From the NCBI GenBank assembly GCA_011526565.1, contig WYBL01000116.1, positions 3,019 through 67,018 on the forward strand: 64,000 nucleotides of DNA, read 5' to 3'. The first letter of the stretch is position 1. Each line of letters begins with the position of its first letter. Shown here piece by piece: positions 37,604-56,760 of this stretch. The notes below the pieces were generated by a model. The model was not told where the DNA came from. It was given only the letters and a program-made list of their open reading frames with translations, and ran no database searches. A program made the position numbers and the translations under genes. The stretch comes from Acidobacteriota bacterium. GTDB taxonomy: Bacteria > Acidobacteriota > Vicinamibacteria > Fen-336.

Positions 37604-39043
<1,440 letters not shown>

Positions 39044-39065
39044 CGGCAACAGGAATCGAAGAGAG

Positions 39066-39832
<767 letters not shown>

Positions 39833-39836
<4 letters not shown>

Positions 39837-41253
39837 GCACGGTGGAACCGGCCGCGCCGGACGCGACCACCCCGGCTCCGGCCCCCGCGGCCGCGCCGAG
39901 CGCTGTCGAGGTGCGCGAGACCCAGCGCGAGGCTTCACGGCGCGACGAAATCGCACCCTGGCTCGTGGCGCTCGAGGCGCTGCGCCGAAAGGGAGAGCCG
40001 GAGTGGCTGGCCGCGCAGCGCGACGACGCCACGGCCCGCTTCGCGCGCCTCGGCTTCCCCACCACCCGCGACGAGGCCTGGCGCCAGACCAGCGTCGCGG
40101 CGCTGGCGCGCACCCGCTTCGACAACGCGACCCGCGGCGCGCTCGACGACGCGCTCGAATCGATGCCCGCGTTCCGCTTCGGCGGAGCGTTCGCCGGCCG
40201 CGAGGCGGTGTTCGTCAACGGCCGCTTCATGCCCGAGCTCTCCAGCCTCGGCAAGCTGGCCCGGGTGCGGGTGCGACCGCTGCGCCAGGTGCTCGCGGAC
40301 GACCCCGACGCGCTGTGCGGCCTGATCGGCGCGGCGGCCGACGACGACAAGCACCCGTTCCTGGCCCTGAACCTCGCCGCCTTCCAGGACGGCGCGGTGG
40401 TCGAGGTGCCCGAGCGATACACGGTCCACGGCCCGATCCACCTGCTCTTCATCAGCACCGGCGGCGCGGCCAGCCATCCGCGGGTGCTGATCGGCCTCAA
40501 CCGCAACTCCCAGGCGACGGTCGTCGAGAGCTACGTCAGCCCGCGCGGCGCCCACTCGTTCTGCAACGCGGCCACCGAGGTGCTGCTCGGCGACGGCGCC
40601 GTGCTCGACCACGTGCGGCTGCAGGCGGAGTCGGAGAAGGCCTACCACGTCGCCACCACCGCGACCCGGGTCAGCCGCAGCGCCACCTACCGCAGCCACG
40701 CGCTGACGCTGGGTGCGGCTCTCTCCCGCCACGACCTCGGCGTGCGGCTCGAGGGCGAAGGCGCCGACGTCGAACTGCACGGCCTGTTCGTCTCCGACGA
40801 CGCCCAGCTCCACGACACCCACTCGAAGCTCGACCACGTCGCCCCGCACGGCACCTCGCGCGAGGTCTACAAGGGCGTGCTCGGCGGCCGCGCTCGCGGC
40901 GTCAAGAACGGGCTGATCGTGGTGCGCCCCGGCGCCCAGAAGACCGACGCCCAGCAACAGAGCCGCAACCTGCTGCTCTCGCGCGAGGCGCTGGTCCACG
41001 CCACGCCGCAGCTCCTGATCCACGCCGACGACGTCAAGTGCAAGCACGGCGCGACCACGGGCCAGATCGAGGACGCGCCGCTGTTCTACCTGCGGTCGCG
41101 CGGCCTCGACGAGGAGGCGGCCCGCGCGCTGCTGGTGTGGGCGTTCGCGGCCGACGTGGTGTCGAAGCTGAAGGTGGCGCCGGTCCGCGAGTCGGTCGAG
41201 CGCTTCCTGCGCGAGCGGCTGCCGGCGGCCGGCGCGGTGCCCGGGACCCGCGC

Positions 41254-41257
<4 letters not shown>
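39833..41257 (+). CDS. sufD: Fe-S cluster assembly protein SufD
   Basis: ATG overlaps sufC stop (ATGA); SufB/D-family C-terminal beta-helix region; position after sufC. Confidence 0.85.
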
Positions 41258-42506
<1,249 letters not shown>

Positions 42507-42507
<1 letters not shown>

Positions 42508-42965
42508 TGTCCGACCTGCGCGAGCTGTACCAGGAGGTCATCCTGGACCACACGAAGAAGCCGCGCAACAAGCGGCCGATGCCCGATGCCACCGGCCACA
42601 GCGACGGCATGAACCCGCTGTGCGGCGACAAGGCGACGGTGTACGTGAAGGTCGAGGACGGGCGCGTCGTCGACGTCTCGTTCGAGGGCCAGGGCTGCTC
42701 GATCTCGACCGCCTCGGCCTCGATGATGACCGAGGCGGTGCGCGGCAAGACGCCCGCCGAGGTCGACGCGCTGTTCGAGCGCTTCCACGCCCTCGTCACA
42801 GCCCCGCCCGACCAGGCGGGCCGCGACGCCGCTCCCGAGCTCGGCAAGCTGGCCGTGTTCGCGGGCGTGTGCGAGTTCCCCGTGCGCGTGAAGTGCGCGT
42901 CGCTCGCGTGGCACACGCTGAAGGCCGCGCTCGCCGGCAACGGCACGCCGGTCAGCACCGAGTAG
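42507..42965 (+). CDS. sufU: SufU/IscU-like Zn-dependent sulfur-transfer scaffold
   Basis: Three conserved Cys (NPLCGD, GQGCSIS, KCASLA); 1-nt overlap with sufS stop. Confidence 0.8.
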
Positions 42966-42975
42966 GAGCCCCATC

Positions 42976-43518
42976 ATGATGAGACAGGCCAAGACGCTGT
43001 CCCGCGACATCGAGGCGACGGCGATCCCCTACGGCGACAAGATCCCGCTCAAGGCGGGCGCGATGGTCTACATCACCCAGGCCCTCGGTGGCACCTGGAC
43101 CGCGATGACCGACCACGGCTACATGGTGCGCATCGAGGCCACCGACGCCGACGCCATCGGCGAGAAGGCCGACCAGGGCCCGAGCCCCGAGGACCTCGCC
43201 AGCAAGCCGCTCGACCAGCTCTGCTGGGACCAGCTCAAGACCTGCTTCGACCCCGAGATCCCGGTCAACATCGTCGACCTCGGCCTCGTCTACGAGTGCG
43301 TGATCAGCGACCGGCCCGAGGGCGGCAAGAAGGTGGCGATCCGCTTCACGCTGACCGCCCCCGGCTGCGGCATGGGCGACTACCTGAAGGCCGACATCGA
43401 GCGCAAGATCGCGAGCATCCCCGGCGTCGACGAGTTCGACGTGCAGCTCGCCTTCGAGCCCCAGTGGAACCAGGCCATGATGAGCGACGCCGCGCGGCTG
43501 CAGCTCGGCCTGATGTGA
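42976..43518 (+). CDS. sufT: SufT/DUF59 (MIP18-family) Fe-S assembly protein
   Basis: DUF59-like LKTCFDPEIPVNIVDLGLVY...TAPGCGMGDYL. Confidence 0.7.
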   Translation: MMRQAKTLSRDIEATAIPYGDKIPLKAGAMVYITQALGGTWTAMTDHGYMVRIEATDADAIGEKADQGPSPEDLASKPLDQLCWDQLKTCFDPEIPVNIVDLGLVYECVISDRPEGGKKVAIRFTLTAPGCGMGDYLKADIERKIASIPGVDEFDVQLAFEPQWNQAMMSDAARLQLGLM

Positions 43519-43537
43519 GGGGCGCGAGGCCCGCCGC

Positions 43538-43990
43538 TTGAAGCTCTCGTCCCAGGAGGAGTACGGCCTGCGCTGCCTGCTCCAGCTCGCCCGCGCGGGC
43601 GACGCCGCCAGCCTGACCATCGCGGAGCTGAGCAAGCGCGAGGGCCTGTCGGCCCCCAACGTCGCCAAGATGCTGCGCCTGCTGCGCCGCTCCGGCTTCG
43701 TGCGTGCCACCCGCGGCCAGCAGGGCGGCTACGCCCTCGCCCGCCCCGCGGCGACGATCAGCGTCGGCGAAGCCCTCTCCGCCCTCGGCGGCCGCATCTT
43801 CGACGAAGGCTTCTGCGACCGCCACGCGGGCGCCGAAGCCTCCTGCGCCCACCTCGACGGCTGCTCGATCAAGCCCGTCCTGCAGCGCCTCCAGGAAGTC
43901 GTCGACTCGGTCCTCGGCCACATGACCCTGTCCGAGCTGCTGAGCCCGCAGGCCCCCCTGATCCGTCTCCAGTCCCGAAGACCGGCCTGA
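43538..43990 (+). CDS. Rrf2-family transcriptional regulator (IscR/SufR-like, 3-Cys cluster ligands)
   Basis: Rrf2 HTH (MKLSSQEEYGLRCLLQLA...LTIAELSKREGLSAPNVAKMLRLLRRSGFV); C-x9-C-x5-C (CDRHAGAEASCAHLDGC). TTG start. Confidence 0.75.
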   Translation: MKLSSQEEYGLRCLLQLARAGDAASLTIAELSKREGLSAPNVAKMLRLLRRSGFVRATRGQQGGYALARPAATISVGEALSALGGRIFDEGFCDRHAGAEASCAHLDGCSIKPVLQRLQEVVDSVLGHMTLSELLSPQAPLIRLQSRRPA

Positions 43991-44002: not shown

Positions 44003-44428
44003 TCAGCACCACTTGAAGAAGGGCACGATCGGGCCGCGCCGGGCACCGAGCCAGAACCCGCAGTCGACTTCCATCGACGCCACCTTCGCGTCTCGCAACT
44101 CGATCTCGGAGTGACCGGCGGCGTCCGCCAGGGCGCGAGCGAGACGCCCGAGCATCACGGCGCGGGACCGGACGTTGGCTCGGGCCTTCTTCCAGTCCTG
44201 GCCGATGGCGTGCTCGGCGAAGAAGAACGTCCTCGTGTAGTGCCCGATCCACCAGCCCCGGGCGTCGTCTCCGATAGGGAACGCCTGCTTGCTGCCCGGC
44301 TTCTTGCCGACGCCTCTGCCGACCATCGGTAGCACGTCGGCCTCGAAGCGCGCCTTCATGCGCTGGGTCTCGACGCTCGGGTCAATCGTGATCGTACCCA
44401 TATCACCCTCCACGGTGGTCCTGTCCAC
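44003..44428 (-). CDS. Hypothetical protein (no recognisable family)
   Basis: Protein-like composition; convergent with Rrf2 gene; possible alternative start 44401. Confidence 0.35.
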   Translation of the reverse strand: MDRTTVEGDMGTITIDPSVETQRMKARFEADVLPMVGRGVGKKPGSKQAFPIGDDARGWWIGHYTRTFFFAEHAIGQDWKKARANVRSRAVMLGRLARALADAAGHSEIELRDAKVASMEVDCGFWLGARRGPIVPFFKWC

Positions 44429-44461
44429 AAGAACGGCAGCCCGGCGCGATACGAACGACGG

Positions 44462-47047
44462 TCAATGCCAGAGCGCCTTGGCGAAACCGCGGGCGTCCCT
44501 AACGGACCGCCGGCCCGGCACCGCGGCAAGAGCGCCCCGAAGAAGACTCGCGAGCCACTCCGGTGTGCGGCTGGCGTCCAGGCGTGCGGGAGAGCCCTGG
44601 CGGACCGTGCGCAGCGTGATCTCCTCGGTAGCCCCCTGGAATGGATGGCTCCCTGCAATCGCCTCGTAGATCACGACCGCCAGCGCCCAGACGTCCCACT
44701 CGGGCGAAGGCGCCACGCCCTCCCAGGCTTCCGGCGGAAGGTAGCGGGGAGTGCCTGCGACACAACCTTCCTGGTCCGCAGACAGCTCCATGAGGTGCGC
44801 GAGGCCGAAATCCAGGAGCTTGGGCGGGCCGGCAACCTGGAATCCGACATTCCCCGGCTTGATGTCACGGTGGAGCAGGCCCTCATCGTGGAGGTCGGCG
44901 AGCGTCGTGGCCAGGGCGCGGCCGAGGCTGAGGCTGGCTTCCAGACCCAGCGGGCCCCGCGTCAGGCGGTCCGCGAGCGTCTCGCCCGCGAGGTACTCCA
45001 CGACCAAGAACGGCACGCCCTTCCAGGTTTCTGCCCCGAACAGGGTCGCCACGCCGGGGTGGTTGATCGACGCCATCACGCGCGCCTCGGATCGCAGCCG
45101 TGCCGCCAGTGCCGGGGACGATCGCGGGAGCGTCTTCAGGGCCACGGTGCGCCCGAGAGTCGTGTCTTCTGCCTCGTAGACGACGCCCATGCCACCCTGA
45201 CCGACGCGCCGAACCAGCCGGAACTTGCCCAGCGCGATGCGCGGCAAGGCCGCCTGCCGACTTCGATCGGCGCCGCACTCGCAGCGCGGTTCGGAGTGAG
45301 CGCGAACTCGCGTGCAGGCGTCGCATTCCAGACCCGGCTCGTCGTCCCACTCCCCGCCCTCGGCGGCGCCCGGCTGCGGCACGCGAGCGATCGCGATTCC
45401 CGCAGCGGACGCGAGACTGTGAGCGAGTTCCTGCGCTCCGCGGTCCCAAGGCTCCTCGGACACGCGTTCGCCGAGGGCCAGGATGGCCGCCGGCTGTCCC
45501 GTGCTGCCCATCACGGGAACGACCAAGGTCACGCCGAGGTCGCTGCTCCATGCACGGTCGTCGTCAGGGAGCAAGGCCAGGAGGCGCGGTGTGATCTCCA
45601 GCGGGCGCGGGTCGGCGTCGAGCATCGCCACGATCGCGCTGCTCGCACTGAGTGGCCGGCAGGCGGAATCGCCCCCAGCGAACGTGCCGCTCGAGTTCCT
45701 CGTCAGAACGCGAACCTGGGTCGCCCCCAACGACATCCTCACCTCGCCTGTGAGGGCCGCCGCGACGTCGCGCTGACCCCGGGCCGCGCTCAGCGCGGTC
45801 AGCAGGCGTTGCAGCCCCGCGCCGCGGTCTCCATCGCCACGCGAGAACAGCCGATCGAGCCCGGCCTGGATCGGCCTGCGAAGCACCCGCAGGACTGTCG
45901 AGAGCGCGAGGGCCGCCAGCAGGCCCTTGCCCGGCCCCGCTCCGAGCAACTCGGCGAGCGGTCGATGGCGCTCGGCGAACAGGTATAGGGCCAACAGCAG
46001 GGCTGGCAGGAACACCAGCAAGTGAAGCGTCGTGCGGGCCAGTGCATGAGAGAGCGCACGCCGCGCCAGGAGGCGGAGGCCGAGGACGCGGCCCGCCGCT
46101 ACGGCTGCAGCGGTCGTCACGGGCAGCGACAGGAGGCCTCCATAGACGATGGTGTCCGTGGCGGCCTCGTACCGATCGACCCAGCGCTCCGCACCCGGCA
46201 CCAGGACCGAAACCAGCGTCAGGAGTACGAGCGGCGCTAGGCCGACGAAGACGGCCACGACGAAGCCGGCCACCCGACGCCCCTCGTCGCCGCTGGCAAG
46301 CCGCGCCTTGCGCAGGGCCAGACGAGCTCCGAGGGCCATGACCGAGAACTGCGCGGCCCAGAACAAGCGACCGCGGCCGTCACCGCCGTCGCGGCCGACG
46401 ACGATCAGCGCCTCACCCAGCGGGCTACCCGAGGCCAGCACTGCAACCGGGGTCACCAGGAAGAGGAACAGACCCAGGGCCGCTGCCGCCTTCTCCAACC
46501 GGACCAGCCCAACCTGTGCCGGCAGGTGGGCTGGCGCGGCGGGGAATCGCAGCAGGAGCGCGAGGAAGGTCGCCGCGAGGAATGCGTCGGGCTGCAGGCC
46601 CGCAAGGAGCGATACGCCGCTGGCCGCGCCCGAAGTGGCGGCGGCGATCGGCCTCGTGGCGAACGTCGCCGCCACGACGACGTAGAAGACGCCGAGACGG
46701 ATCGCGCGAGGGTCGCGGTCTCCGGAGTAGAGGAGCGCGGCACCGGAAAAGCCGAAAACCAGGAGTGGTCCGATGAGTCCGAAGTCCGAGTTCGCGATCG
46801 CCAGCCCGAGCCCTGACAAAGCGCGCGTCGCAGCGAGTAGGCAGAGCAGGCGGAACCCGAGGGACAACGGGTCCGAGACCGAGGCGCTCGCCACCCTGGC
46901 TCGCGCCCGGACGTTTTCGGCAACCGCCTCGAGTACGGTCGCGGTTCGCGACGGCAGCGCGACTCCGCGGTAGGCATCGCGCCAGTCCAGCGGTGCGCCA
47001 TCGGCCGCCGCCGCGGCGAGCCGCACGAGCGCGCCCTCAGGCTCCAT
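44462..47047 (-). CDS. Polytopic membrane Ser/Thr protein kinase (N-terminal cytoplasmic segment + ~10 TM + GAF-like region + Hanks-type kinase)
   Basis: Kinase motifs GQGGMGVVY (Gly loop), VALKTL (VAIK), HRDIKPGNV (catalytic loop), DFGLA (DFG), TPRYLPPE (APE); start overlaps ECF sigma gene end. Confidence 0.75.
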   Translation of the reverse strand: MEPEGALVRLAAAAADGAPLDWRDAYRGVALPSRTATVLEAVAENVRARARVASASVSDPLSLGFRLLCLLAATRALSGLGLAIANSDFGLIGPLLVFGFSGAALLYSGDRDPRAIRLGVFYVVVAATFATRPIAAATSGAASGVSLLAGLQPDAFLAATFLALLLRFPAAPAHLPAQVGLVRLEKAAAALGLFLFLVTPVAVLASGSPLGEALIVVGRDGGDGRGRLFWAAQFSVMALGARLALRKARLASGDEGRRVAGFVVAVFVGLAPLVLLTLVSVLVPGAERWVDRYEAATDTIVYGGLLSLPVTTAAAVAAGRVLGLRLLARRALSHALARTTLHLLVFLPALLLALYLFAERHRPLAELLGAGPGKGLLAALALSTVLRVLRRPIQAGLDRLFSRGDGDRGAGLQRLLTALSAARGQRDVAAALTGEVRMSLGATQVRVLTRNSSGTFAGGDSACRPLSASSAIVAMLDADPRPLEITPRLLALLPDDDRAWSSDLGVTLVVPVMGSTGQPAAILALGERVSEEPWDRGAQELAHSLASAAGIAIARVPQPGAAEGGEWDDEPGLECDACTRVRAHSEPRCECGADRSRQAALPRIALGKFRLVRRVGQGGMGVVYEAEDTTLGRTVALKTLPRSSPALAARLRSEARVMASINHPGVATLFGAETWKGVPFLVVEYLAGETLADRLTRGPLGLEASLSLGRALATTLADLHDEGLLHRDIKPGNVGFQVAGPPKLLDFGLAHLMELSADQEGCVAGTPRYLPPEAWEGVAPSPEWDVWALAVVIYEAIAGSHPFQGATEEITLRTVRQGSPARLDASRTPEWLASLLRGALAAVPGRRSVRDARGFAKALWH

Positions 47048-47717
47048 CGCCCATCGCCTTCGCAAGCTTGGCGAGCGCGCGCGCCACGACCATCCGGGCC
47101 GAGTCCGAAGAGGGCTTGCCCAGTGCCAGCGCGATCTGCTCGTAGCTGTATCCCATCTCGACCCGGGCGACGACCGCCTGCTGCTCGGGAGCCGGCAACT
47201 CGGCCAGGGCGGCCTGGTAGCGGCCCCGAAGTTCGGCGTCGGCGAAGAGGGAGTCCGGCCCTGGCTCCCGGCTCGCCATCTCGTCGCCGATCTCGTCGAC
47301 AGGCGGCCGGCGCGCGGCCCGACGGACGTGGTCGCGAACCCGGTTGACGACGGCCGTGCGGAGGTACGCCCCCAGCGCGCCGCGTCGGCGCGCGTCGAAG
47401 CGATCGAGATTCCGGACGGCCCCGATCAGCGTCTCCTGGACGATGTCTGCGGTGTCGCCCAGCGCGCGCGCCCACCCCGGCAGCCGCCCGCGGGCGAACC
47501 GGAGCAGCCCGGGCATCTCCCGCTCCAGCAGCCGCTCGAGGGCGGAGCGATTCCCGCGCCGCGCCAGGCTGAGCAGGCGCACGGTGGTCGGGGCCGGGGA
47601 GAGAGGGGCCTCGGTCAAGGGATCACGACTCCGCACAGTGACTTCCCAGATTCTGACGACGGAGTGTACATGCACCCGGCGTGCTGTTCGGAACTCCGGT
47701 GAGGGACGTTGTTCCAT
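47037..47717 (-). CDS. ECF (sigma-70 family, group IV) RNA polymerase sigma factor; start codon uncertain (47642-47717)
   Basis: Region 2 DIVQETLIGAVRNLDRFD, region 4 HTH LPAPEQQAVVARVEMGYSYEQIALALGKPSSDSARMVVARALAKL. Confidence 0.7.
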   Translation of the reverse strand: MEQRPSPEFRTARRVHVHSVVRIWEVTVRSRDPLTEAPLSPAPTTVRLLSLARRGNRSALERLLEREMPGLLRFARGRLPGWARALGDTADIVQETLIGAVRNLDRFDARRRGALGAYLRTAVVNRVRDHVRRAARRPPVDEIGDEMASREPGPDSLFADAELRGRYQAALAELPAPEQQAVVARVEMGYSYEQIALALGKPSSDSARMVVARALAKLAKAMGDGA

Positions 47718-47756
47718 TCAAGTTCCCCGTTCGCGCCGTGGACAAGGAGGCGTGCC

Positions 47757-48809
47757 ATGCCGACCGTCAGTTGGCTCACGAAGATCACGGACTTCGTCAA
47801 CCTCGGGAAGATCCTGGTCGACGCGGGTCCCGGCTTCATTCTGGCCCTGGCGCTCTACGTCGGCCTTGGGACGGCCCTCAACCTCCCCCTCATTCCTGTG
47901 CACGGCCATGACGCGGTCGAGAGCCGCCTTGCCGGCGAGCTCGAGAAGCGGAGGCAGGAGGAGGAGGGGCTCGAAGGCCAGGCCCTGCACGCCGAGCAGG
48001 GCCGGGAGGCCGCAGCCGCGGCGGTGAGCGGGGCCGAGGCAGCGCTGACTCGCGCGAAAGCGTCGCCCCTGGGGGGAAAGGCCGAGAGGCGGCTCGTGGT
48101 CGAGCTCCAACGGCTGCAGGGAGACCTGAGGGAGAAGCAACGTAGCGCGAAGGCCGCCGAGCGGAAGCTGCGACAGGGCAGCGAAGCCGTCGCTGAAGCC
48201 AAGGCGGCCCTCGCCGACGCGAAGAAGGCACAGGTGACGAGCGTCGCCGATCTGCTCTCGAGGGTGCTCGAGCACCTGGTCGCACTCGGCCTCGTGGGCT
48301 ACGTTCTCGGCACCCTGCTCAGCCCCGTCAATCGTTGGGTCTTTCTCGACACGATGGGGTCCGATCCCGCCAGCAACGGACTCGATGGCCGACCCTCTTC
48401 CTACTTCGTCGGAAAGGGGGTGGTGTCGCAGACCGAACTCGATGGCCTGGTGACTTCCTACTACCGGTTCGCCGAAGCGAGCGCCAACATGATCCTCCCG
48501 ATCCTGGCGCTTGCCCTCGCGGTCGGCATCGAACGCCGGAGTTCGGTGGCTTCGACTCCCTGGACCTCAGGCGCCGCGGCGCTGCTCGTCTTGGCGTTCG
48601 TTGTGTTCCTGGCCGTCACAGGCCGGCGCCGCTACCGCGACTACAAGACCCGCGTCCACTCGTTCATCACGGGGCGGCTCGAGAAGGTCCAGGCGGCGGA
48701 CGACGATCGCCGGCAGGGGCTGGAGAAGGCCAGGACGCTCGAACAGGTCGTCAAGCTCGCCGAGGAGCTGCTCAAGAAGACGGCCAAGCCCGGGAGCCCA
48801 ACCGCGTGA
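47757..48809 (+). CDS. Membrane protein with long coiled-coil and 4 TM segments, function unknown
   Basis: Strong RBS AAGGAGG 8 nt upstream; TM FILALALYVGLGTAL; coiled-coil rich in E/K/R/A; C-terminal TMs. Confidence 0.6.
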   Translation: MPTVSWLTKITDFVNLGKILVDAGPGFILALALYVGLGTALNLPLIPVHGHDAVESRLAGELEKRRQEEEGLEGQALHAEQGREAAAAAVSGAEAALTRAKASPLGGKAERRLVVELQRLQGDLREKQRSAKAAERKLRQGSEAVAEAKAALADAKKAQVTSVADLLSRVLEHLVALGLVGYVLGTLLSPVNRWVFLDTMGSDPASNGLDGRPSSYFVGKGVVSQTELDGLVTSYYRFAEASANMILPILALALAVGIERRSSVASTPWTSGAAALLVLAFVVFLAVTGRRRYRDYKTRVHSFITGRLEKVQAADDDRRQGLEKARTLEQVVKLAEELLKKTAKPGSPTA

Positions 48810-49837
48810 TTCTCCTGTTCACCCTGGCGCAGCGCCTTCGACAGCGGTACGGCGAGGCCCACTGGGACCGCCTGCGGGCCTCGTTGGTCGACCTCGCCGA
48901 CGCCTACACCCTGACTCACGGGGCCGCAGCGCTGTGCCTGCCCGACGAGTTCTGGCCTCCAGGCTCGGACGCCAACGCCGTCGAGCTGATCCGTTCCGAG
49001 CTGGAGGCGCGGGCCCCGATCGAAGCGCTCGTGATCATCGGCGGCGACTCCGTAGTCCCGTTCGGGAGGGCGCCCAATCCCGTCGCCGATCGCGTCGCCG
49101 ATCCTGATTCCCTGGTCCTCAGCGACGCGGTCTACGGATCACCGTGGAGTCTTGCAGGAGCCCGCGTGCCCGTGGCGAGAATCCCCGACAGCGACCCGCC
49201 AGAACTGGGTGAACTGCTGTCGCTCCTCGAGGCGGCCCGGCCGGATTCCCGTGGCTCGTCTCGACGGGGCGCATTCGCGGTCGCGAATCCGGAGTGGGAA
49301 GCAGCGACCTGGAGGGCGCTCAAGGGTCACCGGCCGACCGTGCGAGTCGCTCCCCACTGGCACGGCGGTGATCCGGAGTGGCCATCCAACGACGCCGCCC
49401 TCCTCTACTTCAACCTCCACGGGTTCGCTCGACGACCCGAGTGGTTCGGATTCCACGACCGCAGCGGATGGACTCCCGTGCTGCGGCCCGGGAACATCCA
49501 ACGCGAGGCGGTCGCGGGCGCGATCGTCTTCGTGGAGAACTGCTACGGCGGCAACACCGTCGGCCGGTCACGACGCTCCAGCATCTCGCTGGCCCTGCTC
49601 GCCTGTGGCGCGCGGGCGATCATCGCCACCGCAGGCCTGGCGTTCGGAAGCCACCTGCCTTCCATGGAGCACAACGCCGACGCGCTGGCCAGCGCGACAC
49701 TCTCCGCCCTTTCCACTGGCGCCTCGGTTGGCGCAGCGCTGGACCGGGCGCGGCAAGCTCTGCCGGGCGACGACGCGTTCGCAGCCAAGACCCGATCCCA
49801 ATTCCTGATCTTCGGCGATCCCCTCGCCACCCTCTGA
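48806..49837 (+). CDS. Putative clan-CD (caspase/CHAT/gingipain-like) cysteine-peptidase-fold protein
   Basis: GTG overlaps upstream stop (GTGA); His-Gly (ALLYFNLHGF) followed ~45 aa later by hydrophobic strand + Cys (GAIVFVENCYGG): His/Cys dyad spacing typical of clan CD. Weak call. Confidence 0.5.
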   Translation: MILLFTLAQRLRQRYGEAHWDRLRASLVDLADAYTLTHGAAALCLPDEFWPPGSDANAVELIRSELEARAPIEALVIIGGDSVVPFGRAPNPVADRVADPDSLVLSDAVYGSPWSLAGARVPVARIPDSDPPELGELLSLLEAARPDSRGSSRRGAFAVANPEWEAATWRALKGHRPTVRVAPHWHGGDPEWPSNDAALLYFNLHGFARRPEWFGFHDRSGWTPVLRPGNIQREAVAGAIVFVENCYGGNTVGRSRRSSISLALLACGARAIIATAGLAFGSHLPSMEHNADALASATLSALSTGASVGAALDRARQALPGDDAFAAKTRSQFLIFGDPLATL

Positions 49838-49850
49838 TCGGAGACTCGCG

Positions 49851-51707
49851 ATGAGACTGGAATACGTGCTCGCCCTGACCCTCGGAGTCGCTCCGGGCGC
49901 CGCAGCCGAGTCCAACGACCGAAAGGCAAGCCAGTACGTCGTCTTCGACGCTCGGTCCGGCGGCAAGGGGCTTCACCGGTGTGTCGGCAGCCCGGGTGCG
50001 GACTGCCGCGCGCCGAAGACCGACTTCTTCGACAGCCAGGACATCGTCCTGTTCCAGCTCGTCGGCGCTCCCTGCAACACCCGATGGACGTTTCAGCTCG
50101 GCGACGTGGCCGTCCCGGAACCCGAGCCGGGGATACGCGGCCTGGGCGACATGCCATCGCTGGCCAAGGCTCTTGCCGGACCGCCACCGGCGCACGGTTC
50201 TGATGCTCCAGCAGCGCAAGCGGCCGACTCGTGGTCCATCGAAGACATCCTCGGTCGGCTCGTCTCCCGGGAAGGGATCCAGGGCCTCCGGCTCGACATC
50301 GAGGGAGAGAAAGCCAGGCTCGAATCTGAGATCAGGAACCTGGCTGCCGCCGTCGCCGCGTACGAGTACGACGTCCGCATCTTCCTCGCCGACGCCGCGG
50401 TCGAGAACGCGGTTGCCGCGGTTCGCGCGGTCGAGGATGCGGCCGGCAAGCCTCCTGCGGCGGGATGCTCCGGCGCGTACCAGTTGCGCGAAGCTGCGGA
50501 GATGGCCGAGGCGGAACTCTCCCGTGTGGAGGCAAACATCACAACCTCAGGCTTGGGGAGCAAGGCCAGCACTCTGCGGGAGCGGCTGCGCGTGCTCGGA
50601 GCCGAGATTGGCCTTCACGCAGCCCGGGTGGACAGGGCACGCGCCGCGGTCGAGATCGCCCGCTCGGGCCTTGGCTGGGAATGCGAAGCCGCGCCGCAGA
50701 CCACGTCGGCCACCGAATGCGACGCTCCTGTCGAGGTGGGCCTGGAACGCTTGAAGCGAGCGGTGGCCGCCTACGGTGCGACCGCTACGGGCGAGGCTCT
50801 GCGCCGGATATACGACCACTACGAGACGGAGAGGCCTCGCGTCCGATACGCCCTTATGCAAGACCTCGCCGAGCTCGGGGTCGCGCTTTCGAGCACGGCC
50901 GTCGATGGCCAGTTGGGCGCGCAGCGGGATAGCGTTCGTCGCTCCTCGGCATCGCTCGAGACGTGGGGGGCTGGGGCCGACGACCGCCTCCGCGACATGC
51001 GGAAGGCGCTCCGACGCCACTTCGCCGATTCCACCTACGCCTCGACCGTCGACGTGCGCCCTCGATTCACGGGGAACACCGTCCTGAGTCTCAAGGTGCG
51101 GCGCCAGGTATTCGATCCGCTCGCGCCGCCGGCCACCGAGCCTCCCGCCGCCGTCGAAGTGGCGAGTGCATCCTACGAGGTGCACAAGCGGTACCTCTTC
51201 AACGTCGGCGGCGGATTCATGATCAGCGGCATCGGGAACAGGGAATACGCCGTCCGGCAGTATCGACGCCTGGATGCCGACGGGCAGCCCGTCTCCGACG
51301 ACGACGGACCAATCTTCGACAAGAAGCTCGTCGAGTCGGGCTCGGATGACCGGTCGCAGGATTTCGCCCTGACCTTCACCGCCTACCTTCCGCGCCGTCT
51401 CGACACTTTCCACGCGTCGGCGGCGCGCCGACCCACGACTGGGTTGATGGTGGGCTTCTCACTCGAGAAGCCCACGGACAACCTGTACGCGGGCCTCGTT
51501 CTTCAGCCGACCCTGGGCATCCAACTGACGGCCGGGGTTCACTTCGGAAAGCGCTCGGCCCCACAGGATGGCATCGTCCCCGAGGTCACCGTGCTCCCGG
51601 CCGACACGACAGCGCCGCCGATACGAGACGAGTGGGCGAGGGCGCTCTTCTTCAGTATCGGGTTCGACGCCAGCGTGTTCTCGCGGTTGTTCGGGTCGTC
51701 CGAGTAG
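49851..51707 (+). CDS. Secreted hypothetical protein with central coiled coil
   Basis: Signal peptide MRLEYVLALTLGVAPGAAAES; 13 bp after previous gene. Confidence 0.6.
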   Translation: MRLEYVLALTLGVAPGAAAESNDRKASQYVVFDARSGGKGLHRCVGSPGADCRAPKTDFFDSQDIVLFQLVGAPCNTRWTFQLGDVAVPEPEPGIRGLGDMPSLAKALAGPPPAHGSDAPAAQAADSWSIEDILGRLVSREGIQGLRLDIEGEKARLESEIRNLAAAVAAYEYDVRIFLADAAVENAVAAVRAVEDAAGKPPAAGCSGAYQLREAAEMAEAELSRVEANITTSGLGSKASTLRERLRVLGAEIGLHAARVDRARAAVEIARSGLGWECEAAPQTTSATECDAPVEVGLERLKRAVAAYGATATGEALRRIYDHYETERPRVRYALMQDLAELGVALSSTAVDGQLGAQRDSVRRSSASLETWGAGADDRLRDMRKALRRHFADSTYASTVDVRPRFTGNTVLSLKVRRQVFDPLAPPATEPPAAVEVASASYEVHKRYLFNVGGGFMISGIGNREYAVRQYRRLDADGQPVSDDDGPIFDKKLVESGSDDRSQDFALTFTAYLPRRLDTFHASAARRPTTGLMVGFSLEKPTDNLYAGLVLQPTLGIQLTAGVHFGKRSAPQDGIVPEVTVLPADTTAPPIRDEWARALFFSIGFDASVFSRLFGSSE

Positions 51708-51808: not shown

Positions 51809-52585
51809 TCAGCGAGCGGGTGCGGGAGGCTCTGCGAAGATCGCGGCGACGAGGTCGAGGCGGCCCGCTTTCCACTTGGCAAAGAGCCAGTTGACCTCCG
51901 GGGCGAGGCTGGCCGCGGCGATGCGTTCCTGGAGGGGCCCCAGCGCTGCGCGAAGGCCGAGCGTGGCTTCGCCGGCCAGGATCTGGAGCTGGGGCCTTCC
52001 TCGCTCCTGCTTGACCGCGGCCACCAGGAAGCCGTCGCCGAGTTCTTTCGGGACTTGCACCTTGGCCGCGCGCAGCAAGGGACCCTGCGGTGGTGCGCCT
52101 GGGTCGCCCGGGCACAGGGTCAGCTTCAGGTCGTGGTCGGCGGGGAGTTCGAGTTCCTTGGGGCTGAGGCCGCGCAGGCTCGACTCGGCGCTTGCGACCA
52201 CCGCCACCGCGCCGCTGCCGCTCGGCCGGTACACCACCCGCCAGTGCGGTGCTGTCCCGCTCCCGTCCTCGTGGGTGGAGACCGCGGTGGAGGCTGACTG
52301 ACCCGCGATCCAACCCGGGTTGTATCCGCAGTCGAGCGAGCCCGACCAGGTGCCGACGCCCGGCTCGCGCCAGCAGACGAAGTGGCCCTGGAACTCGCCG
52401 CACGAGCCACTCGTGCACCACAGGTTCCCGTCGCACCAGGCCTCGACCTGGGCGCAGGGCCACGGCGGCAACCAGCGCTGGCACTCGACCACGCAGTGAT
52501 CGGCGGCCGCGGGCGCGGTCGCCGAGACCAACGTCAGCGTGAGGAAGAGGTCCGTGATTCGAAGCCTTCTTCTCATGCTTCTCAT
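51809..52585 (-). CDS. Secreted Cys-rich hypothetical protein
   Basis: MRSMRRRLRITDLFLTLTLVSATAPAAA signal; 9 Cys in first 80 mature residues; start overlaps upstream gene stop. Confidence 0.5.
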   Translation of the reverse strand: MRSMRRRLRITDLFLTLTLVSATAPAAADHCVVECQRWLPPWPCAQVEAWCDGNLWCTSGSCGEFQGHFVCWREPGVGTWSGSLDCGYNPGWIAGQSASTAVSTHEDGSGTAPHWRVVYRPSGSGAVAVVASAESSLRGLSPKELELPADHDLKLTLCPGDPGAPPQGPLLRAAKVQVPKELGDGFLVAAVKQERGRPQLQILAGEATLGLRAALGPLQERIAAASLAPEVNWLFAKWKAGRLDLVAAIFAEPPAPAR

Positions 52586-52977
52586 CCCTGCCGCCCGCGC
52601 GTGACCACCTCGACCGTGCCGCCGGGCCGCAGGATCAGCTCGATCCGCGCCGCATCCGAGACTTGAAGCACCTGAGTCCACCGCTCCGCCCTCCCGTCGT
52701 TCGACCAACTCACCGTCGCCTGCACGACGCCGGCGTGCGCCCGCACCCGGAGCCTCGGCCCCGTGCCCGTCTCGTGCCCGAGCAACTCGGCCCGCACGCA
52801 CGCCGCATCCACCCTCAGCGTGACGCCAGACGCAGCCCCCGGCCCGCCATTCACGACCTCGACGAGCACTCTGTCGCCGAGGAGGCGGGCGCCGAGCCGC
52901 GGCGCGGCGGCGAGCCCCGCCCCGACCACTGCGAGCGAAGCGACGGCCGCCCAGCGCAACGCCAGGTGGCCACTCAT
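52582..52977 (-). CDS. Small secreted hypothetical protein
   Basis: Signal peptide MSGHLALRWAAVASLAVVGAGLAAAP; ATGA overlaps on both sides. Confidence 0.45.
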   Translation of the reverse strand: MSGHLALRWAAVASLAVVGAGLAAAPRLGARLLGDRVLVEVVNGGPGAASGVTLRVDAACVRAELLGHETGTGPRLRVRAHAGVVQATVSWSNDGRAERWTQVLQVSDAARIELILRPGGTVEVVTRGRQG

Positions 52978-54341
52978 GGCTTCTGGTAGCCGTAGAGCTC
53001 GCGTCGAGCGCCGGCAACCGGGGACATCCAGTCGTCGATCGGGAGACCGGGGAGCGGGCGGCCCCAGAGGTCGCCCCACCTCGCGCCTCGGAGGAAGCTG
53101 ATCGTCCAGCGCTGGACGAGATTCATCAGCGGGAGCGCGGCGTGCAGGGTCATGCCCTTGCGGAACGGGAGGTTCTCGCCGACTCCGAGGAACCCGCCGA
53201 AGTCGCGCTCCGCGACGCCGACCACGGAATCCCGGTCCGCCCACTCAGGAACCGCCCCGTGCAACGGCACGGTACCGTCGCCGAGGTTGTCGCGCCAGGC
53301 GTCGACGTCGGCCGGGGCCCCGTCTTCGCCGCGGTACTCCTGCGACTCCACGTCGAACGCGAAGCGGCCGTCGGCCGCCAGCTTCACACGATGCGCCGTG
53401 CGCTCGTCCAGGCCCACGATCAGCAGCCACTGGCCCGGCTCGGCGAGGGCCGCGCTCGGGTCCTCCTCGTTGACGCTCGCGAGGAAGCTGCGCCCGTCTT
53501 CGAGGCGCTCGCGGAGGTACTTCCACGCGGACTTCATGCGCTGCTCGGCGTTGGAGTTCCTGGGGTCGGTGCTGTGCGTCCGGATGAAGTCGGCGACCGA
53601 CTCGACGATGCTCTCCTGCCAGTTCTTCGCGTTGAAGATCGCCTTCCCCGAGTGCCCCGCCAGCGCTCCTTCGAAGTACGGCAACAGGTGGTAGATCGCG
53701 GGCGTCATGCGGGCCGCCAGGCGCTCGCTGTGCTGCGGCGAGCCGACCATCGAGCCTTCGCCCGTGGCCAGCTTGATCACCGCGTCGACCGCTCCCTGGA
53801 AGGGCGTTCCGATCGTCACCACGCGTCGAACCAGCGGCTTGCCGTTCGGGCCCTTGCAACCCTTGGCGAGAGCCGATGCGATCACCAGACCGCCCATCGA
53901 GTGGCCCACGAGGTCGACCGTCGTCGCCTTCTCTTTCGCGTAGCTCTTCAGGAGGTTGGTGCGGTCGATCACCTCGCGCACGAACTCGCAGAGCTGGTCC
54001 GCCACGACGCGGTTGTCGGCGCGCCAGTCGTAGGCGAACGGGAAGACGGGCACGACTGCCGTCGGCCCGCGATCTTCGCGCAGCGCCGATCGCAGCTCGC
54101 GGATGAACTCCGCGTAGCCCATCTCCGCCGCGTGCGAGGGGACGATCTTCGCCGGCTCCACCGCCTCGAAGCGCAGGTCGTCCGGGTGCATCGCGATGCG
54201 GTGGAACTCCTTGATCGGCCGCCAGCGCAGCGCCTCGATCCCGGGGTCCCAGACGACCTCGGGCGTGGTGGGATAGACGTCGCGGAGCACGGACCCCGTG
54301 ATCCCGTGGACGACGATCACCGGTGGCTGCACCTTCATTGC
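52974..54341 (-). CDS. Alpha/beta-hydrolase, lipase/LCAT-PGAP1-like
   Basis: VIVVHGITGS near N-term; nucleophile elbow GHSMGG; no signal peptide seen. Confidence 0.65.
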   Translation of the reverse strand, partial: AMKVQPPVIVVHGITGSVLRDVYPTTPEVVWDPGIEALRWRPIKEFHRIAMHPDDLRFEAVEPAKIVPSHAAEMGYAEFIRELRSALREDRGPTAVVPVFPFAYDWRADNRVVADQLCEFVREVIDRTNLLKSYAKEKATTVDLVGHSMGGLVIASALAKGCKGPNGKPLVRRVVTIGTPFQGAVDAVIKLATGEGSMVGSPQHSERLAARMTPAIYHLLPYFEGALAGHSGKAIFNAKNWQESIVESVADFIRTHSTDPRNSNAEQRMKSAWKYLRERLEDGRSFLASVNEEDPSAALAEPGQWLLIVGLDERTAHRVKLAADGRFAFDVESQEYRGEDGAPADVDAWRDNLGDGTVPLHGAVPEWADRDSVVGVAERDFGGFLGVGENLPFRKGMTLHAALPLMNLVQRWTISFLRGARWGDLWGRPLPGLPIDDWMSPVAGARRELYGYQKP

Positions 54342-54444: not shown

Positions 54445-56760
54445 TCAGGGGCGGCGCAGGGTCTCCAACGGGGCTTGCCGTGACGCGGCGACTGCCGGTG
54501 CCAGCGAGGCGGCGGCGGCGCACAGAAGGGTGAACGCCGCCGATGCGGTCAGCGTCGTGAGTTCGAACGACGCCCACTGGAAATGAGCCGACTCGGCCCA
54601 CTGGCCCAGCCACACCGAGACGAGGGTTCCGATCCCGATGCCTGCCATGGCCAGCGTCGCCCCCTCGGCCGCCATCAGGATCGTCAACTCGCGGGGCCCT
54701 GCTCCGACGACGGCCCGGACCGCCATCTCGAAGCGGCGCATCGCGGCGAGGGAGTACACGACGGCAGAGACGCCGACGAGCGCCGCCCCAAGGCCGACGA
54801 GGGCGTACGTGCCGAGCAGTCGCACCTGCGCCAGGAGCGGCGCCTGTGCTCGGGCGACGAGATCCCCGGCGAACACCAGGCCATGGACCGAGGGGCTCTT
54901 CGCCGTCCCGCTGACGGCGTGGATCTGCCGAGCGGCCTCGCCGCAATCGTGGCAGCGCACCAGCAACCACTCCTCGTCGGGGTGGCGACCGCGGGCCGGC
55001 CGACTGCGCGGCAGGTAGCACTGGGGCAGGGGTTCCTGGGCAGCATCGATGCCTCGTACCGGTGCGACGACGCCGATGACCTCGCGCAGGGCCAGTTCGC
55101 CCTCGATGCGGATCTGACGACCCACGGCCGCGACAGCCTGCCCTGGCCGCCGCCCCTCGTCGGCGAACGCCAGGATCAGTACGTCCGCGTCTCCCGGCGC
55201 GAAAGCCCGCCCGGCGAGCAGCCGGATCCCGGTCGCGGCCAGGAAGTCGCCCTCCACGTGCCAGACCTGACAGAGGACCCTCCCGGCCTCCCCGTCGATC
55301 CACACGCCCCCTGCTGACGCGACACCTGGAGGCGCAGACGCGGTCGCCGCGGCCGACACTCCGGGAAGTTGCGCGACCTCGGCCATCAGGGCCTGAGGCG
55401 AGGCGCCCAGGCGCCCGAGCAGCAGGTTCTTCGATTCGTAGCCCAGAGGAATCTCGAGTGCTGCTCTCAGGGTCCATGCGGAGACCAGCGCGCCGTTGAG
55501 CAAGACGACCGCGATGACCGTCTGACTGATCACCAGGAGGCGGCGCGTCCACCGCACCTGCCCTGTGGACGCTCCCCCGCCGTCCCGCAGGCCTTCCGAC
55601 GGAGCCGCGCGCAATGCAACGGCCATCGCGCCGGCGGATGCGAGGAGGACGCTCGGGAACGCCAGACCGAGAGCCGCCCCGCTCGCGACGGCGACGAGAC
55701 GCTCGAGCGGCGGCTGGTGGACCCACCAGGCCGCGAATATCTCGCGTCCGCCGACGATCGAGAGGGAGGCGACCAGCGCCCCCACGACGCCCACTCCGAG
55801 GGCGAGGGAGAACGTCTCGCTGCCGAGCTGCAGCAGGAGGTTTCGCCGCGTCGCGCCGAGAGCCTGCCGCACGGCGAACTCGACGCGGCGCACCGACATC
55901 CGACCCAGCAAGAGAGTGCCCAGGCTCGCGACGGCGGTACCCAGGAGCAAGCCCGAGAGCGCCAGGAGCAGCAGCGCGGGCGCTATCACTCTCTCGCGCG
56001 CCACGTCCACCATCGGCCGGACGAACACGCGCTCGCCGAAGCGCACCCCGGTGCTGCGCGTGTAGAGGGCGTGCAGGCCGTGCAGCAAGCCCCCCAGTTG
56101 CGAACGCGCCGACTCGATGCTGGTCTCGGGCCGCAGGCGCCCGACCCAGCCGTCGCGTCGCACCAGGCCGAACGGATCGTCGTTGCCTCGGGCCCGCCCT
56201 CCTGCACGCGTGCGTGGCGTCCAGATCTCGGTGCCTCCCGGGAAGTCGAAGCCCGCCGGGGCGACACCGACGACGCGGTGAAGGGTGCCTTCCAGCAGGA
56301 TCTGCGCCCCGAGCACGGCCGCCCCGGGACCGAAGTGCCGGTCGCGGAAGGCGGCGCCCACAACGGCCACAGGTTCGTTCGATCGATCCTCCTCGACGCT
56401 GAATGCGCGCCCCGGCAAAGGAACGACCCCGAACACGCTGAAGAAGGCGGCGGAGACAGCGGTGGTCCTGACCTCTCTACGGTGGCCGTCCAGTCGGACC
56501 TCGACGAGTCCGGTCTCGTAGGTCGCCAACGCCGCGAGGCTTCGCGCCTGCCCCCAGTACTCGACGGGGTCCCCGACGAGAGGGTGCGCCATGTTCCCGA
56601 GATGCACGATGCGGTCCGCCGCGGGCACCCCGAGCGGGCGCAGGACCAAGGCATCGACGGCGGCCACCATCGCGCTCGCCACGCCGAGGACGACCCCGAG
56701 GGCGATGGCGACGACGGCCGTACCGCGATGGCGAAGGGCGAGCCGGGCATCGAGGCGCAC
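54445..56760 (-). CDS. Duplicated FtsX-domain orphan permease (MacB-like periplasmic domain + 2x FtsX; ADOP-like), no ATPase partner adjacent
   Basis: N-terminal TM, large periplasmic domain, FtsX-type 4-TM blocks twice (LRQALGATRRNLLLQLGSE... and second copy LRAVVGAGPRELTILMAAEG...). Confidence 0.7.
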   Translation of the reverse strand: MRLDARLALRHRGTAVVAIALGVVLGVASAMVAAVDALVLRPLGVPAADRIVHLGNMAHPLVGDPVEYWGQARSLAALATYETGLVEVRLDGHRREVRTTAVSAAFFSVFGVVPLPGRAFSVEEDRSNEPVAVVGAAFRDRHFGPGAAVLGAQILLEGTLHRVVGVAPAGFDFPGGTEIWTPRTRAGGRARGNDDPFGLVRRDGWVGRLRPETSIESARSQLGGLLHGLHALYTRSTGVRFGERVFVRPMVDVARERVIAPALLLLALSGLLLGTAVASLGTLLLGRMSVRRVEFAVRQALGATRRNLLLQLGSETFSLALGVGVVGALVASLSIVGGREIFAAWWVHQPPLERLVAVASGAALGLAFPSVLLASAGAMAVALRAAPSEGLRDGGGASTGQVRWTRRLLVISQTVIAVVLLNGALVSAWTLRAALEIPLGYESKNLLLGRLGASPQALMAEVAQLPGVSAAATASAPPGVASAGGVWIDGEAGRVLCQVWHVEGDFLAATGIRLLAGRAFAPGDADVLILAFADEGRRPGQAVAAVGRQIRIEGELALREVIGVVAPVRGIDAAQEPLPQCYLPRSRPARGRHPDEEWLLVRCHDCGEAARQIHAVSGTAKSPSVHGLVFAGDLVARAQAPLLAQVRLLGTYALVGLGAALVGVSAVVYSLAAMRRFEMAVRAVVGAGPRELTILMAAEGATLAMAGIGIGTLVSVWLGQWAESAHFQWASFELTTLTASAAFTLLCAAAASLAPAVAASRQAPLETLRRP

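Follow-up and report, generated by a model that had tools for sequence, protein, structure and literature searches.

What is a protein with a cysteine-peptidase fold doing in an operon whose other two products match no recognised family? The question is raised by three adjacent genes, here called A, B and C, in a 64,000-nucleotide stretch of an Acidobacteriota genome (assembly GCA_011526565.1, contig WYBL01000116.1, positions 3,019 to 67,018), which we call the window and to which coordinates refer unless another locus is named. An earlier note, made from the letters of the sequence, had described A as a membrane coiled-coil protein, B as caspase- or CHAT-like and C as a large secreted protein, and had suggested that they act in conflict or programmed cell death. 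We find that these three genes make up a true operon, kept by selection, in a soil-type acidobacterium of the Vicinamibacteria (Acidobacteriota), and modelling shows B to be a 343-residue domain with the predicted two-subdomain fold of the gingipains (MEROPS C25-like, clan CD). The genes and the predicted active-site codons lie as follows.

47757-48809, plus strand: gene A, 350 amino acids, supported by an open reading frame (ORF) and independent gene calls.
48806-49837, plus strand: gene B, 343 amino acids, GTG start, supported by an ORF and independent gene calls.
49418-49423, plus strand: codons for His205-Gly206 of B, with the predicted catalytic histidine; invariant in 44 of 44 homologues and, in the model, following a strand at residues 199-203.
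49535-49543, plus strand: codons for Glu244-Asn245-Cys246 of B, with the predicted nucleophile cysteine; neither E244 nor C246 varies in any of the 44 homologues, and in the model they follow a strand at residues 240-244.
49851-51707, plus strand: gene C, 618 amino acids, supported by an ORF and independent gene calls.

The model of B has a predicted local distance difference test score (pLDDT) of 85.7 and a predicted template modelling score (pTM) of 0.89. Its fold-comparison figures are highest for the gingipains RgpB (27.6, with 290 residues aligned) and Kgp (25.2), followed by separase (15.6), the CHAT proteins Csx29, SAVED-CHAT and DdvA (13-14), PorU (11.9), and the caspases, metacaspases and legumain (about 9). 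Foldseek returned the same ranking, with RgpB at an E-value of 4e-11 and a query TM-score (TMq) of 0.65. The model contains the alpha/beta/alpha sandwich of clan CD (the caspase-hemoglobinase fold) and is built of two alpha/beta subdomains, as a gingipain-type catalytic domain is; His-Gly comes before Cys, the clan-CD order, and each follows a hydrophobic beta-strand. B has no Pfam match to the CHAT domain (PF12770) and its structure is closer to the gingipains, nor is a caspase or metacaspase (MEROPS C14) found as a profile match or as the closest fold. As modelled, B is a gingipain-type catalytic domain and not a caspase or CHAT domain, so that of the original caspase/CHAT-like label the clan assignment stands and the family does not.

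The two motifs from which the catalytic dyad had been proposed, YFNLHGF and IVFVENCYGG, are present, with the dyad residues at His205 and Cys246 and not near 203 and 249 as first counted. In an alignment of 44 relatives (about 30% identity to B), roughly 40 further positions are invariant together with the His-Gly and Glu-x-Cys residues, as one would expect if an active site is being conserved; the invariant acidic residues include D99, D101, D107 and D292. The earlier note had staked its clan-CD reading on a caspase-like predicted fold and on conservation of the two catalytic residues, and both were found: the modelled fold and Foldseek agree, and His and Cys are invariant in all 44.

Plain sequence comparison adds little to this picture. 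B has no sequence-level match to any PDB chain, and the profiles A1 and A2, the profile of C and protein A gave no informative match to PDB sequences either. When B was compared with RgpB (a sequence 100% identical to 4ief_B), hhalign gave an E-value of 0.7 and aligned only the GD..IP, SD..Y and GR motifs, and a global alignment was indistinguishable from shuffles (z 0.77); the latter matches H205 to H211 of RgpB and the two FGDP motifs to each other, and does not match the Cys residues (C244 in RgpB). Because the alignment is insignificant, the gingipain assignment is drawn from the fold comparison and from the Pfam matches of B's relatives. Only nine of the 44 aligned relatives match Peptidase_C25 (PF01364) at E ≤ 0.01, the best at 7e-13; precomputed tables list this family for relatives of B, marked weak where a mark is shown, and a homologue from Rhizobium scores 17.4 bits, below the cut-off of 23. 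Judged by its sequence, B lies outside the curated C25 family.

Inspection of the sequence of B found no hydrophobic leader, transmembrane (TM) segment or twin-arginine translocation (Tat) motif. The first strand of the model begins at residue 2 (pLDDT 95), and the N-terminus of B lines up with the point inside the long relatives where the domain starts, and with residue 8 of the Rhizobium homologue. The architecture of secreted C25 proteins (signal peptide, pro-domain, immunoglobulin-like (Ig-like) domain and C-terminal domain of type IX secretion systems (T9SS)) is absent, and the catalytic domain fills all 343 residues. Having no export signal, B is predicted to be a stand-alone catalytic domain in the cytoplasm.

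That the three genes are tightly linked on the plus strand can be read directly from the sequence, as had been reported: the stop codon of A and the start codon of B share GTGA (48806-48809), and 13 bp (49838-49850) separate B from C. Shine-Dalgarno-like sites precede A (AAGGAGG, 47744-47750), B (GGGAG, 9 nt 5' of the start) and C (GGAGA before the start). The same three products appear in the gene calls of 18 public contigs with an identical B protein, and NCBI annotates them as hypothetical proteins of a Vicinamibacteria bacterium metagenome-assembled genome (MCL4820282-84). Conservation of the gene neighbourhood, which the earlier note had named as a check, is seen in public contigs of a sister lineage, where B is 82% identical and the order kinase-sigma-A-B-C is kept. 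Between the two lineages the ratio of nonsynonymous to synonymous substitution rates (dN/dS) is 0.21-0.31 for the kinase, the sigma factor, A, B and C, and all five genes are under purifying selection. G+C content is uniformly high across the window (0.67-0.76), with no sign of foreign base composition. The window contains no tRNA, no Rfam element and no paralogue of these genes; at the locus no sigma-70-type promoter and no convincing terminator were found, and no terminator lies within A-B-C.

The statement that A, B and C belong to no recognised family also held, scans of Pfam, NCBIfam, PADLOC and PHROGs giving nothing meaningful for any of them. In PADLOC-DB v2 there was nothing for B, C or two downstream proteins, and for A only a coiled-coil-type match to LmuB (E 0.06); this match, like those to a tape-measure protein (E 0.003) and to LptF/G (0.03) in the library scans, was discarded as coiled-coil or TM noise.

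Besides B and its copy in the sister lineage, a first homology search with B returned only three metagenomic proteins, which carry Pfam Peptidase_C25. A profile search raised the number of relatives above 1,600, and an exhaustive library contained 2,299 cluster representatives. Nearly all of these relatives are Anaerolineae (Chloroflexota) proteins of about 855-920 amino acids, including ones from the cultured Bellilinea caldifistulae and Thermanaerothrix daxensis, in which the C25-like domain has a tetratricopeptide repeat (TPR) region on its N-terminal side and, on its C-terminal side, a Cys/His-rich extension of about 130 residues. By sequence they are the closest relatives of B, sharing about 26-35% identity with it over 42-100% of its length, and many align over the full length. 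Among the best 150 of the 2,299 representatives, only B terminates at the catalytic domain. The one Anaerolineae member checked (P0012) has no signal peptide and no TM segment. At least 571 stretches in a species-representative genome collection encode a relative, in a scan whose patterns were biased to the Anaerolineae subfamily and which returned almost entirely Anaerolineae.

The Anaerolineae genes have partners of their own. At the 83 loci examined, the C25-like gene comes last in a conserved trio with translational coupling, after genes for a 2-TM protein of about 110 amino acids and a TPR protein of 1,550-2,010 amino acids (locus L010, 306-8733, and the Bellilinea caldifistulae and Thermanaerothrix daxensis loci are examples), with stop/start overlaps commonly of 3-9 nt. 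The giant TPR ORF was present at 60 of the 83 and the 2-TM ORF at 45, most of the others being cut by contig ends. The 2-TM protein carries the conserved motif QKGI..DV.GLV.NAS...LNQLV.TA.G.GVFL, and a literature search found no description of the three-gene family. Homology between A and this 2-TM partner was considered and rejected: hhalign gave an E-value of 0.09 and a probability of 0.6%, and 244 of 2000 block shuffles scored as well or better in hmmsearch.

A further homologue of B, the 522-residue WP_283055133.1, is encoded on plasmid pCB3171_5 of Rhizobium sp. CB3171 (L092, 8980-10548). It is 28% identical to B over residues 3-342 and keeps FNCHG and ECCYGG. Its gene stands alone, divergent from a cluster of ferritin-like, radical S-adenosylmethionine and tryptophan-halogenase genes that may serve to make a peptide natural product. 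This was the only homologue of B to emerge from the metagenome, viral and plasmid scans, and the model of B has no structural relative in BFVD. A and C returned nothing in both metagenome scans, three viral scans and the plasmid tblastn. Outside the two sister lineages no relative was found, whether in a 5.8-billion-cluster collection for C (in which it has only two homologues), in JGI metagenomes for A, or among viral contigs and plasmids. The comparisons indicate a C25-like catalytic domain that is widespread and partners that are lineage-specific. A and C are orphans, and the function of the operon cannot be derived from homology.

Hydropathy predicts A to be a 4-TM inner-membrane protein, with hydrophobic segments at about 24-46, 169-188, 244-258 and 272-288. 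Between TM1 and TM2 lies a charged, Ala/Glu/Arg-rich helical stretch of about 110 residues (55-165), which a SPLGG break at 103-107 suggests to be a hairpin and in which heptad periodicity exceeds the 95% shuffle level in the second half only; the four TM segments first described are thus there, while the coiled coil is shorter than the ~150 residues then given. Counts of Lys and Arg in the flanks favour an N-in/C-in topology, 10 to 5, and the strongest positive cluster, RRRYRDYKTR, follows TM4. By this count the hairpin would be periplasmic, and the highly conserved loop at 189-243 and the C-terminal helix (which, with the basic juxtamembrane cluster before it, takes up 289-350) would be cytoplasmic. 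A is 79% identical between the lineages (dN/dS 0.29), with blocks 1-50 and 201-250 at 92-94%, the hairpin at 60-70% and the first 34 residues 100% conserved, so that TM1 and the parts predicted to be cytoplasmic are the best conserved and the hairpin, predicted to be periplasmic, evolves faster. Matches of designed pentatricopeptide repeats to the C-terminal helix contained no passing stretch, reflect repeat inflation and were set aside.

C begins with a signal-peptide-like sequence, MRLEYVLALTLGVAPGAAA|E, and has six invariant cysteines, three of them in a conserved N-terminal domain, which fits an exported, disulfide-bonded protein. AlphaFold2 gives a helical region of about 260 residues (130-393) a pLDDT of 70-88 and the rest below 50; at an overall pLDDT of 46 the model is too poor for a fold search. 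The conserved C-terminal domain (400-618) is beta-rich, has seven or eight amphipathic strand candidates and may lie in the outer membrane. Relative to the sister lineage, dN/dS is 0.22, and the helical region evolves faster than the N-terminal domain and the C-terminal third. The description of C as a secreted coiled-coil protein of 618 residues fits its leader-like N-terminus and, with moderate confidence, the helices at 130-393, and leaves out the beta-rich C-terminal third.

A sigma factor of the extracytoplasmic function (ECF) type and a transmembrane Ser/Thr kinase are encoded divergently from the trio, where the earlier note had seen them, and this placement is syntenic in the sister lineage. 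The spacer between sigma and A is 138 bp. The features on this side of the locus are listed below.

44003-44401, minus strand: ORF of 132 amino acids, no family, 60 bp downstream of the kinase, with gene calls in both lineages.
44462-47047, minus strand: Hanks-type Ser/Thr kinase, 861 amino acids (Pkinase E 4.7e-37, weak GAF).
47037-47618, minus strand: ECF sigma factor, 193 amino acids (Sigma70_r2 3e-12, Sigma70_r4_2 5.7e-8, TIGR02937 3.7e-21).
47662-47672, no strand assigned: palindromic element GAGTGTACATG, identical in the sister lineage, where the flanks vary.
47684-47710, plus strand: CTGTTCGGAAC-N12-CGTT, a candidate promoter or operator, both blocks conserved and the spacer divergent in the sister lineage.

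An 11-nt overlap joins the sigma and kinase genes, whose pairing is kept in the sister lineage. Besides about eight TM segments (67-361), the kinase contains a GAF-like region and, at 575, the Cys cluster CDAC, with the kinase domain at the C-terminal end (616-853) and its VALK, HRD and DFG motifs in place. Between the lineages the sigma factor is 95% identical with a synonymous divergence (dS) of 0.16, compared with 62% and 0.96 for the kinase, whose N-terminal sensor blocks (1-100) and C-terminal end are among its least conserved parts; this uneven divergence suggests recombination or rapid evolution of the sensor. The 132-residue ORF, 20-59% identical per 50-residue block and without a Pfam match, is possibly the third gene of the sigma-kinase transcription unit. 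The element CTGTTCGGAAC-N12-CGTT sits about 47 nt upstream of the start of A and, as GGAAC...CGTT, resembles the -35 and -10 boxes of ECF promoters; GTTCGGAAC is itself nearly palindromic. A copy of this second element with two mismatches lies upstream of the 132-residue ORF (44432-44456, minus strand), which is within chance expectation. Neither the domain scans nor the gene calls revealed a recognisable anti-sigma gene beside the sigma factor, or an anti-sigma domain in A or the N-terminus of the kinase.

In sigma factors of the ECF43 group the partner kinase phosphorylates region 2.2, where the acidic DxxD is replaced by an uncharged, Thr-containing motif (QTTA/QATE) (PMC13147305). The sigma factor described here shares the co-occurrence with a Hanks kinase and does not have the QTTA-type motif: its region 2.2 reads G-DTAD-IVQE, the canonical DxxDxxQE, with Ala at the position of the phosphorylated Thr, in a comparison made by eye against the motif quoted in that paper.

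Several other operons surround these genes. Immediately upstream of the locus (about 38800-43990, plus strand) is a complete Suf operon for iron-sulfur (Fe-S) cluster assembly, with SufB/D, SufC, SufS-like, NifU-like and FeS_assembly_P genes followed by a Rrf2-family regulator. Convergent with C is a three-gene operon (51809-54338, minus strand) for a 255-residue protein that matches no family, begins with a signal peptide and has numerous Cys and Trp residues, a 131-residue protein with a leader and no family, and an LCAT/PGAP1-like alpha/beta hydrolase; a MacB/FtsX-type permease comes after it (54445-56760). An RNA-repair pair, Pnkp (kinase-phosphatase-ligase) and the Hen1 methyltransferase, has been inserted immediately 3' of C in the sister lineage (L001, 9565-13589) and is absent from the window.

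The account we favour, and to which we would give not quite an even chance, is that B is a membrane-docked cytoplasmic clan-CD endopeptidase in a lineage-specific, envelope-linked module, with the sigma/kinase pair probably in control. B would be an active cysteine endopeptidase of the cytoplasm, translationally coupled to A through the GTGA overlap and made in fixed proportion with it. A would dock and gate B at the inner membrane face through the loop at 189-243 and the basic C-terminal helix, and C would be the envelope-side component. Most likely, the sigma factor and kinase would respond to an envelope signal by setting how strongly the operon is transcribed; it is their position and synteny that make such control of A-B-C plausible.

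A number of observations weigh against this account. B has no match to PF01364 even at E ≤ 1. What links A, B and C is adjacency, with no co-evolution signal beyond it, and their combination is seen only in two closely related lineages, to which the synteny evidence is limited. The partners of B differ by lineage, a 2-TM and a giant TPR protein in the Anaerolineae and none in Rhizobium, where the gene stands alone; since distant relatives of B have other partners, A-B-C is no conserved unit of ancient origin. A's topology is drawn from the positive-inside rule only, and with so poor a model of C its suggested place in the outer membrane comes from counting amphipathic strands. On the regulatory side, the 12-nt spacer of the candidate promoter is shorter than the 16-17 nt usual for ECF promoters, and GTTCGGAAC-N12-CGTT is not enriched in the window (two matches against 1.15 expected). 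As the sigma factor keeps DxxDxxQE, phosphorylation of its region 2.2 by the kinase is not indicated (PMC13147305).

Other explanations share parts of this evidence. The role first proposed, as an effector module in conflict or programmed death, would have an infection or damage signal activate B, B cleave or release A as a membrane-damaging effector, and the sigma/kinase pair sense the attack. Its support comes by analogy: after the gingipains and separase, the next-best fold neighbours of B include the TPR-CHAT protein Csx29 (type III-E CRISPR, clustered regularly interspaced short palindromic repeats), SAVED-CHAT and DdvA, B is tightly coupled to a membrane partner, an RNA-repair pair directly follows C in the sister lineage, and the kinase diverges fast where the sigma factor does not (62% against 95%). 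The locus argues otherwise. A, B and C match no PADLOC or PHROG family; the flanks are housekeeping genes, Suf and a MacB-type transporter, and not a defence island; nor is the base composition foreign. None of the three has close relatives on phage contigs, with A and C having none on plasmids and B none in BFVD, and the trio is seen only in two sister lineages and is not scattered over phyla, with ordinary purifying selection on all three genes. The module belongs to no defence system so far described, and this role, for which we see no positive support, we consider unlikely. More unlikely still would be a pathway split among separate proteins in the manner of DdvA, with a signal passing through C and A, and B cleaving an inhibitor of the sigma factor that might be part of A or of the kinase. 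The missing anti-sigma gene, the divergent and syntenic arrangement and the complete conservation of residues 1-34 of A would suit such a pathway, but neither A nor the N-terminus of the kinase contains a detectable anti-sigma domain, the CHAT domain of DdvA is periplasmic and fused to its anti-sigma whereas B is cytoplasmic and separate, and no relative of B in other phyla adjoins a sigma factor.

The remaining alternatives concern B itself and its tie to its neighbours. B might be a catalytically dead scaffold that uses the gingipain fold for binding only, as its position below every Pfam C25 threshold and a similarity to RgpB that plain alignment does not detect would allow; with His-Gly, Glu-x-Cys and some 40 positions invariant in 44 sequences, and the active-site motifs kept in the Rhizobium homologue too, this is improbable. 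The 13 bp between B and C could be taken to indicate a PorU-like enzyme, a C25 protease of sortase or signal-peptidase type that processes or attaches C or other envelope proteins. We hold this to be slightly more improbable again, in that the first residues of B form a buried strand and it lacks a signal peptide, a TM segment and a Tat motif, the Sec-type leader of C would place enzyme and substrate in different compartments, and the fold similarity to PorU is much lower than to gingipain catalytic domains. Lastly, A, B and C might be mere neighbours with unrelated functions: A and C offer no homologues for a wider test of co-occurrence, and relatives of B occur without either. A 4-nt stop/start overlap, a 13-bp gap, Shine-Dalgarno sites, the lack of an internal terminator and a block that stays intact in the sister lineage despite the insertion immediately downstream make this very improbable, the least credible of the explanations considered.

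The membrane-docked endopeptidase can also be drawn out into a new kind of trans-envelope protease switch, which strikes us as an unlikely extension. C, as an exported sensor possibly anchored in the outer membrane, would contact the periplasmic hairpin of the transducer A, A would release or activate B to cleave cytoplasmic targets, and the outcome could feed the sigma/kinase pair or a response of the abortive-infection type; the Anaerolineae trio would then be a second version of the device. Should these proteins be intracellular proteases under regulation, separase and the TPR-CHAT proteases of CRISPR and of cyclic-oligonucleotide-based antiphage signalling systems (CBASS) would be their parallels, and the gingipain branch would join those in which clan-CD proteolysis is partner-gated; on the ordinary reading, the locus adds another envelope-stress operon to those confined to one lineage. 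At this locus the complete gingipain catalytic fold, its active site intact, occurs in a different phylum as a bare protein that is predicted to be cytoplasmic and is translationally coupled to a membrane protein, and tracing its relatives exposes a large uncharacterised family with more than 2,000 cluster representatives, hundreds of Anaerolineae species, a TPR fusion and a three-gene module. B is a minimal cytoplasmic form of a known kind of protease in an orphan operon, and no new biological principle is indicated yet.

The known enzymes of the gingipain family (C25) are secreted virulence proteases and the T9SS sortase of Bacteroidota. In RgpB and Kgp of Porphyromonas gingivalis (MEROPS C25; PDB 4ief, 1cvr, 4rbm), the order of His-Gly and Cys is that seen in B, with a beta-strand before each; the RgpB catalytic domain, at about 350 residues, is matched by B in size, and both end in an FGDP motif. 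Sequence identity to the gingipains is only 12-14%, with no significant alignment, and B carries none of their secretory parts (signal peptide, N-terminal pro-domain, Ig-like domain, T9SS C-terminal domain), being predicted to stay in the cytoplasm of an Acidobacteriota host without a gingipain-type T9SS context here. The TPR and C25-like proteins of the Anaerolineae have the same invariant residues as B and come from a tightly coupled operon with a small membrane protein, but they carry the TPR region and Cys/His-rich tail that B lacks, and their partners are not A or C.

For the regulatory genes, the nearest parallels are the ECF43 pairs EcfP-PknT of Vibrio parahaemolyticus and EcfK-PknS of Xanthomonas citri, in which a sigma factor coupled to a transmembrane Hanks kinase controls nearby envelope-related genes (PMC13147305). 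The locus shares the direct coupling of ECF sigma factor and transmembrane Hanks kinase with them and differs in the acidic DTADIVQE kept by the sigma factor and in a kinase domain that is C-terminal, behind about eight TM segments. DdvA, an anti-sigma that controls a CBASS-CRISPR island (PMC11506125), combines a zinc anti-sigma domain, a TM helix and a periplasmic TPR-CHAT region in one polypeptide next to a sigma gene. That architecture is not found here: B is separate and cytoplasmic, with neither TM nor TPR, A has no anti-sigma match, and it is a Hanks kinase that follows the sigma gene. The TPR-CHAT proteases (separase, Csx29 of craspase, SAVED-CHAT) are clan-CD enzymes of the cytoplasm with a His/Cys dyad, inactive until a partner or signal engages them. 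B matches them clearly less well than it does the gingipains, in the C-terminal subdomain only (about 230 residues), and has neither their TPR domain nor their CRISPR, CBASS or cohesin-type context. For a cytoplasmic, partner-gated B, as we picture it, separase and Csx29 nevertheless offer by analogy the best functional parallel, and the gingipains the closest structural family.

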